The position numbers were made by a program, and so were the translations under genes. The notes under the pieces are model-generated. The model made no database searches and was not told where the DNA came from. It saw nothing but the letters and a program-made list of their open reading frames with translations. 28,268 nucleotides of DNA from a virus, in the UHGV virus genome UHGV-0093355. The stretch is one strand, 5' to 3'. Below are positions 7,910 to 28,099 of this stretch, piece by piece. Each line of letters opens with the position of its first letter. The first letter of the stretch is position 1.

Positions 7910-9232
7910 ATGAGTGCGTTAAGGGATGAAGTATCTATGAAGGTTGCGTTCTCTAATGGCATGATAAACAAATTATGCAAAAGTTTTTTTTATAGTCATG
8001 GTAAGGAGCAGCCTTGTATTCAAGTCGGTAAAGCATTAGAAGATTTTGTTTTTTGGCTTGCATATAATGATGAGGAGATTGCAAAATGTGCTAGTAGGTT
8101 ATTAAAAGCATATGGCCCCCAATTAGGTATAAGTGACCTTCACAATGCGAAAAGATTATTGTTAGGTTTTTGTTCTGAAGCCTTCAATCGCATTGATGCT
8201 GATTTTCTGTCGCTTAATCCTGATAAGATTTGTGTTGATGATATTATAACGCAAGTTCATAGAAAAAATCTTAGTGAGATGTTTAAGTATTATATACTTT
8301 CACGAATAAAATTATGTCCATATATTTATAATCTTGGGTGTGCTGGCTTTGATGGGAAGCTTGAGCTTAGAGAAAATTTATTTTTATATGGCCCGGGGTT
8401 AGGGGTGGAATTACTTTCTGATATTAAAGACAAAACTGACATCAAGGTTCCTGTTGATTTTTATGATGATGAATATATGCGGCATAAACCAATTGGGAAG
8501 TATTTTCGACAGTCAAAATCCTGCTTGGTGGTGGCATATGCTTCATCAGAGGATAAAGCGGTGAAAATGTTTGATAGTTTGTTTGGAGCTTTATGTCTTG
8601 CAGTTGATAATCCTTTTGCGATTAATCGAGTTGCTGTTAATAATCTAGTTGAGTCTTTTGGTGTCGGGAAATATCATGAAAGTGAGTTTCGGGTGAATAT
8701 TCCGTCTGTATATAATTTAAATATAACGGATTCAGCCTTGGCGATACTTACAAAAATACTTTCATCACCTGATAAAAGGATGTTGTCTGCTCTTTCCTTT
8801 ATAGCGCACGGGTGGAGGGATGACAAACGTGAAAGGTTTTTGAATCAATTTATAGCATTGGATGCTATGTATGGAACCAATAATGGTAATAAAAATTCAA
8901 TTATTGGCGGTGTTTGCAGAGATGCGGCGAAAATTATTGATATTGATTCAAAAATAGGAATAATCTATGAGCTTAGGTGTAAGTTTGTTCATGGAGATAT
9001 TTCATCGTTATCTGATAATGATGGCTATCGAAAGTTTATTGATAGCTATGGCGTAGACCCTATTGTTTCTCTTTTTGAAATTCTTAAAGAATGCGTCCTT
9101 AATTATAATGGTACTTACAAAACGCCAAAAGATGTTGGAAAGGCAGATAGGTCTATTTGCGTTCCTGCTGAGTTGCTTCCAGCGGTTGAGAGGATGATAG
9201 CGGAATACAGTGGAGTTAAAAAAACAAACTAA
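7910..9232 (+). CDS. Cargo protein of unknown function, 440 aa (tin/old position)
   Basis: Single long ORF with AAGGA RBS before ATG 7910; strongly AT-rich compared with flanking A and Q; no Walker A motif, so not Old-like. Confidence 0.7.
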   Translation: MSALRDEVSMKVAFSNGMINKLCKSFFYSHGKEQPCIQVGKALEDFVFWLAYNDEEIAKCASRLLKAYGPQLGISDLHNAKRLLLGFCSEAFNRIDADFLSLNPDKICVDDIITQVHRKNLSEMFKYYILSRIKLCPYIYNLGCAGFDGKLELRENLFLYGPGLGVELLSDIKDKTDIKVPVDFYDDEYMRHKPIGKYFRQSKSCLVVAYASSEDKAVKMFDSLFGALCLAVDNPFAINRVAVNNLVESFGVGKYHESEFRVNIPSVYNLNITDSALAILTKILSSPDKRMLSALSFIAHGWRDDKRERFLNQFIALDAMYGTNNGNKNSIIGGVCRDAAKIIDIDSKIGIIYELRCKFVHGDISSLSDNDGYRKFIDSYGVDPIVSLFEILKECVLNYNGTYKTPKDVGKADRSICVPAELLPAVERMIAEYSGVKKTN

Positions 9233-9374
9233 AGATGTTCTTTTTAGCCTCGCCTGCATTAGGTGCATAAATTTGCATTCATTTTCAAATATATCTTTTG
9301 ACAGTGAGCACCAGAACAGGCGCTTGCCGGGGGGGATGATGCACCTGCATTAAAACCGACCCATGAAGCGGGCG

Positions 9375-10597: not shown

Positions 10598-12369
10598 CAG
10601 TAAAACTCCAGAATGGTGGATGTCAGCGGGGTGCTGATACCGGCGGTGAGTGGCTCATTTAACAGGGCGTGCATGGTCGCCCAGGCGAGGTCGGCGTGGC
10701 TGGCTTCCTCGCTGCGACTGGCCTCATAGGTGGCGCTGCGTCCGCTGCTGGTCATGGTCTTGCGGATAGCCATAAACGAGCTGGTGATGTCGGTGGCGCT
10801 GACGTCATATTCCAGACAGCCACGGCGGATGACGTCTTTTGCCTTGAGCACCATTGCGGTTTTCATTTCCGGCGTGTAGCGGATGTCGCGCGCGGCGGGA
10901 TAGAACGAGCGCACGAGCTGGAACACGCCGACACCGAGGCCGGTGGCATCAATACCGATGTATTCGACGTTATATTTTTCGGTGAGTTTGCGGATGGATT
11001 CAGCCTGAGTGGCAAAGTCCATGCCTTTCCACTGGTGACGCTCAAGTATTCTGAATTTGCCACCGGCCACCACCGGCGGTGCCAGCACCACGCATCCGGC
11101 ACTGTCGCCACGGTGTGACGGGTCGTAACCAATCCATACCGGGCGGGAGCCGAACGGATTGGCGGCAAACGGTGCATAGTCTTCCCATTCTTCCAGCGTG
11201 TCGACCATGCAGCGTTGCAGCTCCTCGAACGGGAACACCGATGCCTTGTCGTCAACAAATTCACACATGAACAGGTTTTTAAAATCGTCGGCGCTGTTTT
11301 CGCGTTTGAGCTGCTCAATGTCGAACAGTGTGCAGCCACCTTTCAGGGCGTCCTCAATGGTGACAATCTGCCGCCACTGGCCGTCCGCACAGAGAAGCCC
11401 ACCGGCAAGGGCGTTATGACTGACGTCGATTTCCACACGTTCGGCGGCGCTGGCGCGTCCCCGGTTGAACAGTTCACCCGACCAGAACGGGTAGGCGTCG
11501 TGCGCCAGTGTGGACGGGGTGGAGAAATAGGTCGAGCGCAGGTGACTCTGTGAGGCCATACCTGATGCCACCTTACGCAGTACCTGAAAATTCGGGATCC
11601 AGAAAATCTCATCGACGTACAGGTCGCCGTTATGGCTCTGTGCGGTGTTGGAATTGGTGCCGAGAAAAATCAGTTTTGCGCCGTTATTGCCCAGGACAAT
11701 CGGGTCACCGGTCAGGTCAACGTCAACCAGACGGGCAAAGGCGATGATGTATTCACGGAACACATACGCCTGCGTTTTACTGGCCGACAGAAAAATCTGG
11801 TTATGGCCGGTTTTCAGGGCGCGCAGCAGCGCCTCGCGGGAAAAATAAAACGTCGCGCCAATCTGGCGGGATTTCAGGATATCGCGGATGCGGTGCTCAA
11901 GCCCGGCGCGATACCAGTGCAACTGATAGTCGAAAGACTGCTCAAAGAAAATCTGCTCCAGCTTTTCGATAGCCTCGTCACTGAAAAAATTCTTTTTCGG
12001 TTTGCGCCGCCCGCCTTTGTTGCGGTTAGCGACGTTCGGATTAAGGTCTGCCTCGTTGCCGGTCTGACTGTAACGGTTGACCCGTGCCAGTCGTTCAATC
12101 TGGCGTCCCAGCAGGTCAATTTCCTTGAAATCACCGCCGGTTTTCTGCGGTTTGATGATGAGCTGGGTCAGCCGCGCTTCCAGGCTCATTTCGACACGGC
12201 TGATGGGGGCAACACTGTCCCAGCCGTCGCGCTGTTTCCAGCTCTGCACCGTCGGGCGTTTCATCTGCAACATGGCGGCAATCTGCGGCACGGAAAACCC
12301 CTGCCAGTACAGCAGCGCCGCCTGACGACGCGGGTCGTGTAAAAGAGTGGTGTCTGTGGTGATGGTCAT
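10597..12369 (-). CDS. P: Terminase large (ATPase) subunit, 590 aa (P2 gpP-like)
   Basis: Start set at internal ATG (12369) giving N-terminus MTITTDTTLLHDPRRQAALLYWQGF, preceded by GAGGT RBS; recognised as P2 P-like. Confidence 0.95.
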   Translation of the reverse strand: MTITTDTTLLHDPRRQAALLYWQGFSVPQIAAMLQMKRPTVQSWKQRDGWDSVAPISRVEMSLEARLTQLIIKPQKTGGDFKEIDLLGRQIERLARVNRYSQTGNEADLNPNVANRNKGGRRKPKKNFFSDEAIEKLEQIFFEQSFDYQLHWYRAGLEHRIRDILKSRQIGATFYFSREALLRALKTGHNQIFLSASKTQAYVFREYIIAFARLVDVDLTGDPIVLGNNGAKLIFLGTNSNTAQSHNGDLYVDEIFWIPNFQVLRKVASGMASQSHLRSTYFSTPSTLAHDAYPFWSGELFNRGRASAAERVEIDVSHNALAGGLLCADGQWRQIVTIEDALKGGCTLFDIEQLKRENSADDFKNLFMCEFVDDKASVFPFEELQRCMVDTLEEWEDYAPFAANPFGSRPVWIGYDPSHRGDSAGCVVLAPPVVAGGKFRILERHQWKGMDFATQAESIRKLTEKYNVEYIGIDATGLGVGVFQLVRSFYPAARDIRYTPEMKTAMVLKAKDVIRRGCLEYDVSATDITSSFMAIRKTMTSSGRSATYEASRSEEASHADLAWATMHALLNEPLTAGISTPLTSTILEFY

Positions 12370-24803: not shown

Positions 24804-25345
24804 GTTGTATGAGCTCTAGTGTGAGCTTACATATCTATGGCACAGAGTAAAGACTAATCTGACAGTCCGCTCTGTGCCAAAAGCGGTTCTTGCCTGAAGG
24901 CTCTGCCAGCTCGTTATTGCCCCATTCCGTGTTTTGGCTCGTTAGCTCAATCAAAAAATCCCACTCCTGCTGCCATACAAATTCTTATCTATTTGCCTAT
25001 GTTTGCCTTATCAGAAATCGACTAATAATGTATGGGTATACCGTCATGCTTAAATTTAGGTGTTTTTGTATGATTTTAACACAGAATTAGTGCGCGCCAA
25101 TTCCATTCGAAATGTATAAAAATCTATAAAATCAATTAACTATAGGTTCTTGATTTTAGTTAATAGGTTTGAAAAACGCGCCTGCGCGTTTTTCAAGATA
25201 GTGTATTTGGCAAAAAGATGATAACATATTTGCATACAAATAGTTAACCGTGCGCGTTTTTACTGGTCTAACGAAGTAAATGTGCATCCGCACGAATAAA
25301 ATATTAGGCCTATACAACACACAGCCATCACTATCGGGAATAAAT

Positions 25346-26785
25346 ATGACAGACAGGAAAACAGTAGCCGTAGTTGATGCTGGTCACCTCGTTTCACCAA
25401 TCGGTGAACTCAATGAGCAATTAGAGTGGTATCTCGTAAACGTTGGGCTCCCTGTTAATGATGTTGTTGCACCAATTGCTGAAAGAAAAAAGGTCATTGC
25501 ACAACTCGCTGATGCTCTGGAAATACTTCCTCACGCTGATCGTGGACAAGCCCACTACTTATCGCGCTTTACGATTGCAATCGCTGCTGGGCTTTTTGAT
25601 GGCGCGCTAAATTATCTTTGGGACGAAACCGTCAGGGCTCTTCGTCGCCAAGTCATTAGCTTTGATATTCAATATTTTTATTCGGTTGCCGAGAAAATCA
25701 GTTCCCGCTACAAGTCGCTTTCAAAGTCAGAAGAAATCGATCAAGTTAGCGAACACGATCTATTGGAGGGGTGCCGCCGAATAGGGTTGGTAACTGATGT
25801 TAACTATCAACGACTAGAGCATGTTAACTACATGCGCAATCATGCAAGTGCTGCACATCCAAACGACAACGAAATCGATGGCTACGAAATGCTTGGGTGG
25901 CTAACGGCATGTCTTAAACATGCCATCACCGCAGAGCCAGACCATTCTCTAATTTCCATCAAGCAACTTCTCCAGAACATTCGTACGGTAGCCATTCCAA
26001 GTGGTGACTTTTCCGTAATCTGTTCTGATTTGGCAAAACAACCGCAAGAGCGGATTGATGACTTCCTCTGGACGTTATTTGGTATCTACACGGATGATAA
26101 ATCTGCTCAGCATGCAAGAGATAATATTGAAGGCATTAGTCCAGCCGTCTGGGTTGCTGCAACCGAAGATAGAAAATACGAAATTGGTGCCCGGTTTGGA
26201 ATGCTCCGAAAAAATGGACAGGTCGCGAAGAAGGATGCCAGCCAGAAATTCCTGGAAGTGGTGGGTGGTCTCGCATACAAAGATGAAGACAGCCTTGCCG
26301 GCGAATTGATAGAGAAGCTTGAGAACCTCTATCGTGCGCACTTCGGATCAAACAATTTTTATAACGAATATCCTCATGCAAAAGCACTGAATGATAGTTT
26401 GCCCGCTACAGGAAAAATTCCCCGTGCGGCTCGGGCAATGTGGGTCAAGGTAATTTCAATTTGCTATGTCGGCAACGGGCATGGATACAGGCAAGGAGTG
26501 GACGAGCAAGCCCTCCCATATTATCAAGACTACGTAAGTAATTTCACCGAAGGGGAAACGGCCGAATTTATCAAACTTTTCTTTGAACCCGAGTTTGCCA
26601 GCCCGCTATCACGAAGCACCCCAGATAAACGAGCCCGTGATTTGGCAACGCTCCTGAAAGCCAAACACACAAACGTTCATTTACAGCGAGCGCTCGATTT
26701 AATCATTGCAGCCCCCGCGAAGACTTTATATGGTCTTTACAACACTACAGGCTTCAAGAATGTTGTTCCAAATCTTCCAGCTTAA
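25346..26785 (+). CDS. Cargo protein of unknown function, 479 aa (Z/fun position, gene 1)
   Basis: Long ORF in an AT-rich island; start set at ATG 25346 (MTDRK), though ATG 25280 is possible and neither has a strong RBS. Contains an R-N-x5-H motif (about nt 25835-25858). Confidence 0.65.
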   Translation: MTDRKTVAVVDAGHLVSPIGELNEQLEWYLVNVGLPVNDVVAPIAERKKVIAQLADALEILPHADRGQAHYLSRFTIAIAAGLFDGALNYLWDETVRALRRQVISFDIQYFYSVAEKISSRYKSLSKSEEIDQVSEHDLLEGCRRIGLVTDVNYQRLEHVNYMRNHASAAHPNDNEIDGYEMLGWLTACLKHAITAEPDHSLISIKQLLQNIRTVAIPSGDFSVICSDLAKQPQERIDDFLWTLFGIYTDDKSAQHARDNIEGISPAVWVAATEDRKYEIGARFGMLRKNGQVAKKDASQKFLEVVGGLAYKDEDSLAGELIEKLENLYRAHFGSNNFYNEYPHAKALNDSLPATGKIPRAARAMWVKVISICYVGNGHGYRQGVDEQALPYYQDYVSNFTEGETAEFIKLFFEPEFASPLSRSTPDKRARDLATLLKAKHTNVHLQRALDLIIAAPAKTLYGLYNTTGFKNVVPNLPA

Positions 26786-26869
26786 CAAATCGTTCCAGAG
26801 GACTCCGAAAAAGCTACGCTTTTTCTCCCTCCCCCCCCTGAACTCATGCGTTATGTTTAAGAGGCTGGT

Positions 26870-27772
26870 TTGAGCGGTATAAAAATAACTTTTGCTTATG
26901 ATAGCAATGGTGTTCGTGTGGATGCTGATTCTTATGGAGCTCTCCCTATAGCTCATCCTCTCGTATGTCCAGATAAAAACTGTGAAGCGTTTTTGAAGCA
27001 TGTGAATGGGTATAAGCGTGAAAGCTACGGCAAACAGCAGTTCATCCCTGCTTTTTACCGATTAGAAAAAGGCTTCGATCATAGTGAGTATTGCCGTTAC
27101 AAATCCTCTGGTAGAGATACAATTGTTGCTGGAGAGTCAGATCATGAAGTTAAAGATGCTCTTGCTAAAGGTGAATTATTGTTTCGTATTCATGTAATGG
27201 ATGCGGAAGAAAAGAAAAAGCTAAAAGATAAGGCAGGGGTCTTTCAACAGTTTCCACCGAATGATACGACTGAGCGGAAATATAGAAACCGAGGACGCAG
27301 ATCTACTTACGTTCGCACGATGAATAGCCTATTGGAAATCTATAATCATGGGCGTCTTAATCCACAAGATAGAGCAAAGATTAGGCTCATAATTGGCGGT
27401 AAGTTAGTAAAGTGGACAGATTTCTTTTACTCGACCAATCACCTAGGTAGTCTAAAATCACGCCTTCATCGTGAGGGAATTGTTCAAGCAGCCGTTGTAG
27501 TTAAAGTAAGTGTTGTAGGACTACCAAATAAAAAACTTAATGGCTTTTGCTTTATAGAGTGTAGCCCCAAGACTACTGGATTAGGTAAACATATATACAC
27601 AACGTTGAAACTAGCTAAGAGCTTCCCAAGTAGTCACTTCACTTTGAATCAAAACGTAATGGTTTTGGGAAAATTTAGCATTCCAGAACCAAGTGCCCGT
27701 GTTACTCCATCATATTTAGGTAATGAAATCAGGACACTAATAACTCACGCACAGCAAGTGGTGGTCATTTAA
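26870..27772 (+). CDS. Cargo protein of unknown function, 300 aa (Z/fun position, gene 2)
   Basis: ORF beginning with TTG at 26870, 5 nt after AAGAGG (26859-26864); co-directional, 84 bp after gene 1; AT-rich; basic (Lys/Arg-rich) central region. Confidence 0.6.
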   Translation: MSGIKITFAYDSNGVRVDADSYGALPIAHPLVCPDKNCEAFLKHVNGYKRESYGKQQFIPAFYRLEKGFDHSEYCRYKSSGRDTIVAGESDHEVKDALAKGELLFRIHVMDAEEKKKLKDKAGVFQQFPPNDTTERKYRNRGRRSTYVRTMNSLLEIYNHGRLNPQDRAKIRLIIGGKLVKWTDFFYSTNHLGSLKSRLHREGIVQAAVVVKVSVVGLPNKKLNGFCFIECSPKTTGLGKHIYTTLKLAKSFPSSHFTLNQNVMVLGKFSIPEPSARVTPSYLGNEIRTLITHAQQVVVI

Positions 27773-28070
27773 ACATAACAAATGCTTCCAGAGGGCTTCC
27801 AACGCGTGGCATTTTTGCAGTGCGTTGATTTCGGTGGTTTCAGTGTTATGCGGAAACTTGGTAGTAGCGTTGCCTGCCCTTAGGCGGGCGTTATCTCCAT
27901 AGAAATTTTAATCCGAAACTGACGAATTAGAGCAAAGGGGCTACCACGCTTTATATGTCTAGAAGCAAGTTACGGCAATGACCGCTCCTCGCTCAAAGCA
28001 GACTGTCAGATTTGATAGCGTTTGGGCTATGTAAATTGTCAGTTGGAAAATGAGTGAGTGCAAATCATGA

Positions 28071-28099
28071 CAGGCGGGCTGATTGCCCGCCTTTTCTTT
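28071..28099 (+). terminator. Rho-independent terminator downstream of cargo island 3
   Basis: Stem AGGCGGGC / GCCCGCCT with 5-nt loop, followed by TTTTCTTTATC. Confidence 0.55.

Follow-up and report, generated by a model that had tools for sequence, protein, structure and literature searches.

A C8 tract between two cargo genes of a P2-like prophage probably lies within an attC recombination site

Two cargo genes, here termed gene 1 and gene 2, follow one another in a 28,268-nt stretch of viral DNA (UHGV virus genome UHGV-0093355), the whole of which is called the window below. The spacer between them is probably the attC recombination site (59-base element) of a gene-1 cassette, with gene 2 and the attC downstream of it (attC2) forming a second, independent cassette; from sequence comparisons we assign this reading a probability of about 0.82. 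A run of eight C residues in the spacer, which a preliminary description had proposed as a slippage-prone regulator of gene 2, falls in the 3′ arm of this putative attC, which makes it a leftover of gene assembly, and nothing was found that shows an on/off switch. As first stated, the C8 finding would carry little weight, the tract being a structural remnant rather than a switch.

The C8 tract and the start of gene 2

The elements at the junction of the two genes are the following.

25346-26785, plus strand: gene 1, 479 aa, as called in public assemblies
26783-26785: stop codon TAA of gene 1
26826-26830, plus strand: TCCCT, directly 5′ of the C8 tract
26831-26838, plus strand: C8 homopolymer, read from the sequence, on the L′ side (3′ arm) of the putative spacer attC
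26859-26864, plus strand: AAGAGG, ribosome binding site (RBS) of gene 2
26870-26872, plus strand: TTG start codon of gene 2, 5 nt past AAGAGG
26870-27772, plus strand: gene 2, 300 aa

The coordinates of the preliminary description all hold on reading the sequence: the C8 tract lies at 26831-26838, 20 nt (26839-26858) before AAGAGG, within a spacer of 84 nt, and gene 2 begins at TTG 26870. This TTG is the only usable start of the 300-aa gene 2. An in-frame TAA at 26858-26860 makes it the first possible start, a GTG 16 codons further on would be the next one, and 21 homologues all share the N-terminus (M)SGIKI. An ATG at 26853 was tried as an alternative start and rejected, being out of frame and followed by a stop after 6 codons.

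The C8 tract is the only C run longer than five in the window. Under an i.i.d. model with the base composition of the window, 0.2 runs of at least eight C are expected per 28 kb, and about 3.6 runs of at least six, against one observed. The tract is thus unusual for the DNA of the window, and not statistically compelling by itself. Other long homopolymers in the window are a T8 (7984-7991) and a G7 (9329-9335). The tract recurs in 13 further public assemblies and, as a C7, in a 92%-identical copy (locus L037), so that it is inherited and not noise.

An attC-like site between genes 1 and 2

The spacer can be divided into the elements of an integron attC site, located directly 3′ of gene 1 and oriented in the same direction.

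26780-26856, plus strand: putative spacer attC of the gene-1 cassette, 77 nt, from covariance model R1 and comparative evidence
26780-26786, plus strand: R″ box GCTTAAC, which holds the TAA of gene 1 and fits RYYYAAC exactly
26792-26801, plus strand: L″ box GTTCCAGAGG, read as GTTC[C]AG[A]GG with bulged C and A
26807-26814 and 26818-26825, plus strand: apical stem GAAAAAGC and GCTTTTTC, with loop TAC
26826-26835, plus strand: C-rich internal loop TCCCT plus CCCCC, below the apical hairpin
26836-26843, plus strand: L′ box CCCTGAAC; the R1 alignment places CCC-TGAAC on the conserved ccCUUAac of Vibrio attCs
26850-26856, plus strand: R′ box GTTATGT, which departs from GTTRRRY at one position (T for R)
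G26850/T26851, plus strand: predicted crossover point, the gene-2 cassette beginning at T26851

The terminal boxes RYYYAAC and GTTRRRY are thus present in inverted orientation, and R1 pairs UAAC with GUUA. In the L″/L′ dyad, GTTC[C]AG[A]GG pairs with CCCTGAAC, with bulges positioned as in 16 Vibrio attCs. Only the last three residues of the C8 tract (26836-26838) belong to the paired part, their partner being GAGG of the 5′ arm (L box), while C26831-26835 and TCCCT are unpaired in the internal loop. The minimum-energy fold of the bottom strand as DNA reproduces the L-box pairing with an extrahelical G, as well as the apical hairpin. The apical stem, rich in A/T, is weak, with a DNA folding energy of about -6 kcal/mol, and the recombinogenic fold has a low predicted probability of about 0.05. 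The DNA fold z-scores of the spacer, from -1.1 to -1.6, are not significant.

R1 is a home-made covariance model built from 16 attCs, all of them from Vibrio and L018 loci with cassette arrays of the Vibrio type. Its consensus fold comprises 23 base pairs, nine of which show compensatory changes, and has the canonical attC features of R″/R′ pairing, a short unpaired spacer, and an L stem with two bulged bases. The model was applied to both strands of the entire window with filters off; a shortened calibration makes its E-values rough ones. The three best matches were as follows.

27770-27898: attC after gene 2 (attC2), 85.3 bits, rough E-value 2e-20
26777-26858: spacer, 21.8 bits, rough E-value about 9e-4
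11727-11782: next best match, 10.9 bits, rough E-value 0.67

The attC of the gene-2 cassette can be delimited as follows.

27773-27896, plus strand: attC2, 124 nt, of the Vibrio (VCR-like) type, ending GGCGGGC-G/TTATCT (the slash marks the cassette boundary)

Many repeats of the Vibrio cassette arrays L011 and L012 match it at 73-77% identity. The spacer resembles attC2 in both directions: its first 27 nt (5′ arm) match the 5′ arm of attC2 at 81% identity, and its last 27 nt (3′ arm, C run included) are 78% complementary to that same arm. Comparative evidence also places a cassette boundary in the spacer. Homology between the window and lone gene-2 cassettes begins at 26848 in Vibrio, where the conserved GC before G/TT is shared, and at 26850 in locus L018, in which gene 2 is 95% identical at the protein level and the DNA upstream of it is unrelated; both start points correspond to the G/TT of the core site. 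The repeat upstream of the Vibrio gene 2 ends in CTCACCCCTTAACAGGGC-G/TTATGTTTAAGAGGCAAATTTG.

The position of the C8 tract reads CAC(C/A)CC on the 3′ arm of Vibrio-type attCs, where the homologous C residues covary with GAG(G/T)G on the opposite arm (GAGGG with CCCC, GAGTG with CACC). None of the 16 Vibrio attCs has a C run longer than four, so that C8 is atypical for an attC. The tract would represent a lengthened version of this short conserved stretch, in a place where its length is weakly constrained and may drift by slippage. In a host bearing an integron, the folded bottom strand would be the putative substrate of the IntI integrase. No Rfam family matched the spacer. Upstream of gene 1, neither attC nor attI was found, and the gene-1 homologues sampled include none from a confirmed integron, so that gene 1 is assigned to a cassette by its 3′ site only.

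The likeness to attC might be coincidental, the spacer being an ordinary intercistronic region of a two-gene operon and its C run a chance feature. The modest R1 score of the spacer in the window itself would fit this explanation, as would the persistence of genes 1 and 2 side by side across 8% nucleotide divergence and the expectation of 0.2 C8 runs per window, which is not negligible. Against it, the spacer is the second-best R1 match on either strand of 28 kb and abuts exactly a stop codon and a cassette boundary, and its counterpart in L037 reaches 31.5 bits (rough E-value 8e-6). Moreover, its direct and inverted similarity is to a bona fide attC situated 993 nt downstream, the homology breakpoint falls at G/TT, and each of the two genes is found alone elsewhere. 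Taken together, we consider coincidence highly improbable.

Length variation of the tract and expression of gene 2

Length variation was examined in 14 near-identical copies, i.e. the window and 13 assemblies retrieved by exact-protein look-ups. The tract reads C8 in 12 of the 14 copies, C7 in one (L007, a deletion, its contig recurring in three samples) and TC7 in one, the latter by substitution. In the 92%-identical L037 the tract is C7 and the C-rich stretch is 5 nt shorter (CTCCCCCCCTG), which indicates that its length drifts over evolutionary time, as expected of an unpaired loop. No further copies turned up in collections of viral genomes, species-representative genomes and JGI metagenomes when these were scanned for exact patterns with a tract of any length (N{3,16}).

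The preliminary description had regarded the tract as prone to slippage, and as a possible cause of phase-variable expression of gene 2 through a promoter or regulatory RNA structure spanning it. Such a contingency tract could be defended on the grounds that C8 is long enough to slip, that it is the sole C run of more than five in 28 kb, and that it does vary in length, both in the C7 copy and in L037. Indel polymorphism at the tract is therefore real, but the copies compared do not show the spread of lengths expected of a contingency locus, C8 being retained in 12 of 14 independent assemblies. Likewise, the tract does lie in a structured element, but this element is the putative attC, whose 3′ arm accounts for the tract by homology, and the spacer has no sigma-70-like promoter (six such sites in the whole region, below the shuffle expectation of 8.1). 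No real open reading frame crosses the tract, which is intergenic and does not lie between the Shine-Dalgarno sequence (SD) and the start codon, and no intrinsic terminator (G+C-rich stem followed by a T run) was found in the spacer, the only terminator-like sites being at 28072-28092. In RNA folds of variants from C0 to C12 the SD is predicted to be 0.37-0.46 unpaired throughout; tract-length-dependent sequestration by an anti-SD is thereby ruled out in silico. A switch at the level of attC folding was also considered and rejected, the predicted probability of the recombinogenic DNA fold falling only gradually, from 0.12 at C4 to 0.02 at C12. Phase variation by the tract is unsupported, the interpretation of the preliminary description is mostly not supported, and a slippage switch for gene 2 appears scarcely tenable. 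A constant effect at the RNA level, in which the attC hairpin together with the C-rich stretch would act as a partial terminator or block the RBS of gene 2 and so fix a low ratio of gene 2 to gene 1, is compatible with an attC origin of the spacer and would be in line with an SD that is only about 43% unpaired in RNA folds, with pairing of the C-rich stretch near the RBS, and with the low gene-2 output to which the conserved TTG also points; attC sites have been discussed as weak terminators (PMC9892861). We nevertheless think it unlikely, given the empty terminator scan, the weak apical stem and the non-significant fold z-scores, and given that lone gene-2 cassettes keep the same SD and TTG behind entirely different upstream attCs.

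The TTG start of gene 2

The enterobacterial, Vibrio, Shewanella and L018/L037 lineages all keep the arrangement GAGG-N5-7-TTG, as does Photorhabdus, where the protein is 47% identical; in all, the TTG persists in five lineages that lack gene 1. Outside the 3.1-kb unit described below, gene 1 is absent from all TTG-bearing lineages, and the neighbour of gene 2 in Photorhabdus is unrelated to it. The presence of the same TTG and SD where gene 1 is missing indicates that the start is not tuned to gene 1. The weak TTG is an old, probably selected property of the gene-2 cassette, as judged from its sequence conservation. Gene 2 is probably read from a bicistronic mRNA starting upstream of gene 1, by way of its own strong SD and an anciently conserved weak start codon.

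This bears on the earlier suggestion that gene 2 is translated at a deliberately low level relative to gene 1, as a toxic effector or a stoichiometric partner. Conservation of TTG down to 47% identity fits selection for a weak start, but the level is not set relative to gene 1. Against a role as stoichiometric partner of gene 1, gene 2 carries the TTG as a lone cassette in Vibrio, Shewanella and Photorhabdus, where gene 1 is missing. Nor does gene 2 look like a toxic effector: its predicted fold, a zinc ribbon plus an OB fold of nucleic-acid-binding type, has no recognisable enzymatic effector domain, and the candidate effector, HEPN-like, would be gene 1.

Genes 1 and 2 as separate cargo

The product of gene 1 is predicted to be all-helical (pLDDT 80.6) and looks HEPN-like, with an invariant R164-x6-H171 motif. 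HEPN domains are four-helix folds that carry an R-x4-6-H motif. Its homologues, 917 above threshold, are widely spread, and in every other gene-1 locus sampled the gene is on its own, in islands, ICE-like contexts and many mobile elements. In the product of gene 2, C33, C38, H71 and C75 are invariant and likely form a zinc ribbon according to the predicted structure (pLDDT 81.4), in which the C-terminal OB fold resembles MCM N-terminal and RPA domains. Only 22 homologues of gene 2 were found among 5.8 billion cluster representatives. Searches of PADLOC, Pfam and NCBIfam gave no usable match for either protein, PDB sequence profiles gave nothing for either, and PHROGs placed both only in families of unknown function.

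Vibrio chromosomal integrons carry homologues of gene 2, 89% identical at the protein level, as lone cassettes. The integrase beside the Vibrio gene 2 in L011 scores 502 bits on TIGR02249 (cut-off 265), which identifies a true integron, and the Vibrio arrays hold ParE/Phd and acetyltransferase cassettes together with many copies of a repeat of about 125 nt. In L011 (2242-4903) and L013, both from Vibrio, no more than about 800 nt separate the gene-2 homologue from the integron integrase, so that it is one of the first cassettes in its array. In integrons, such early cassettes are the most strongly expressed from the cassette promoter. The Shewanella homologue has an attC on both sides. Gene 2 occurs without gene 1 in Vibrio, Shewanella, L018 and Photorhabdus, and the two genes do not form an obligate pair, since among the loci sampled they co-occur only within the 3.1-kb unit. 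The two cargo genes would therefore not be a two-component system but independently mobile cassettes, one HEPN-like and the other with a zinc ribbon and an OB fold, and any anti-phage activity is to be judged separately for each.

Partial or diverged sites follow some gene-1 homologues. In L021 (4441-4454), a homologue of 82% nucleotide identity retains only the first part of attC (TAACAAATCGTTCC), and in L038 (3941-3979) another, also of 82% nucleotide identity, is followed by a diverged attC without the C run. These sites point to decay or replacement of attC outside the 3.1-kb unit. About 150 nt upstream of gene 1 in the window, a near-perfect palindrome, GAAAAACGCGCCTGCGCGTTTTTC, is found at 25165-25196. 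It could be a terminator or an operator; in Rfam it matched only psRNA14, at 24 bits and thus far below the gathering score of 60.

A defence role for genes 1 and 2 is plausible from their context. The cassettes of Vibrio integrons include many anti-phage genes, homologues of which occur in prophages of other genera (Darracq et al. 2024, bioRxiv 10.1101/2024.07.02.601686), and P2-like phages have two variable loci which hold anti-phage genes (Rousset et al. 2022, PMC9122126).

Prophage setting and the 3.1-kb unit

The cargo is flanked by P2-like gene G (tail-fibre assembly) and gene FI (sheath), with 94-97% identity, and thus occupies the variable G/FI (Z/fun) locus of P2-like phages. Inverted repeats were reportedly annotated at this P2 locus by Nilsson and colleagues in 2004. 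In a search of 50,697 phage records, the 3.1 kb between G and FI had no match, only the G and FI flanks being found, and megablast against 5,426 complete E. coli genomes gave no match to the spacer region or the 3.1-kb cargo. Both cassettes are contained in a discrete unit.

24865-28004, plus strand: cargo unit with both cassettes, 3.13 kb, with hairpin-like ends in a 39-nt imperfect inverted repeat
24856-24894 and 27974-28012: the two copies of the 39-nt imperfect inverted repeat

The ends of the unit read GTCCGCT...AGCGG on the left and GACCGCT...AGCAGAC on the right. At least five genomic contexts share the unit at 99.7% identity, namely P2-like prophages, a chromosomal islet beside purB, a lambdoid prophage and two other chromosomal sites, and L037 has it at 92.1% nucleotide identity; the loci that show it are L001, L005, L029, L033 and L037. 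The genome with the purB islet has a purB gene only 88.8% identical to that of E. coli. In P2 the unit sits at the centre of an 18-bp perfect palindrome, AATCTGACA to its left and TGTCAGATT to its right. The unit is preceded in L005 and L033 by another copy of the hairpin plus CTTCAGCTCAG, which suggests site-specific insertion. The hairpin plus junction (left junction of L033 and L005, 75 nt) is present in 898 of the 5,426 complete E. coli genomes, at one to four places in each, and is without annotation in the 12 records listed. One example, in NZ_CP042901.1 (1407513-1407579, L044), lies in an island of the Ag43/GTPase type and adjoins an integrase fragment.

The locus documents a concrete route by which cassettes of Vibrio chromosomal integrons would have reached a defence hotspot of enterobacterial P2-like prophages. 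It is tempting to go further and speculate that intact Vibrio-type cassettes, with attCs still working, are shuttled into and among enterobacterial prophage hotspots and islands inside the hairpin-ended module by some site-specific or single-strand recombinase, and that the C run could tune folding and recombination of the gene-1 attC. We view this extended scenario as rather doubtful; if true, P2-like phages would link the integron cassette pool to bacteria that lack an integron. For annotation, the spacer calls for some caution, as any short structured spacer in a phage cargo island might turn out to be an attC.

Comparison with contingency loci, integrons and CALINs

Contingency loci driven by homopolymers occur in Neisseria, Haemophilus and Bordetella. 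The C8 tract shares with them a G/C homopolymer upstream of a gene and some length polymorphism between isolates. It differs in lying outside any promoter spacer or reading frame, in its nearly fixed length among the isolates compared, and in having no predicted effect of length on accessibility of the RBS.

The proposed cargo resembles anti-phage integron cassettes and the genes of P2 hotspots (Darracq et al. 2024; Rousset et al. 2022, PMC9122126) in consisting of small single genes of unknown function, present in the chromosomal integrons of Vibrio as cassettes and in prophages and islands of other genera. The HEPN-like fold suggested for gene 1 would be typical of abortive-infection proteins. 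Unlike known anti-phage cassettes, neither protein matches PADLOC, Pfam or NCBIfam models.

With VCR-like attCs of Vibrio, the spacer has in common the inverse-core and core boxes at its ends, an imperfect dyad with two bulges, a location directly 3′ of an open reading frame whose stop lies in R″, a G/TT cassette boundary, and a C run homologous to CAC(C/A)CC of the L′ box. The length of attCs ranges from roughly 57 to 141 nt, and the 77 nt of the spacer site fall within it, although its variable central part is much shorter than that of the Vibrio repeats of about 125 nt. Its C8, compared with a maximum of C4 in 16 Vibrio sites, and the one-position departure in R′ are further differences. 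Moreover, a complete integron has intI and attI next to its cassette array, whereas no intI or attI was found beside the cassettes here, and the only integrase of the window scores 70.7 bits on TIGR02249 (cut-off 265), far from the 502 bits of Vibrio L011.

Since the 28-kb window holds no integron integrase, the two sites form a CALIN-like cluster and not an integron, CALINs being groups of attCs that have no integron integrase. Like CALINs, they comprise two putative attCs 993 nt apart, oriented like their open reading frames and without IntI, here in a 3.1-kb module at the P2 G/FI (Z/fun) hotspot. Among 10,705 phage genomes, 17 have been reported to contain CALINs (Qi et al. 2023, PMC9892861), in a text in which the terms "P2-like", "Peduovir" and "Myovir" do not occur. 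The locus described here would add an attC cluster to this known kind as a new member of the class. It shares with the phage CALINs its location inside a temperate phage genome, and differs from them in lying at the G/FI variable locus of an enterobacterial P2-like prophage, nested in a hairpin-ended module that is also present outside phages.
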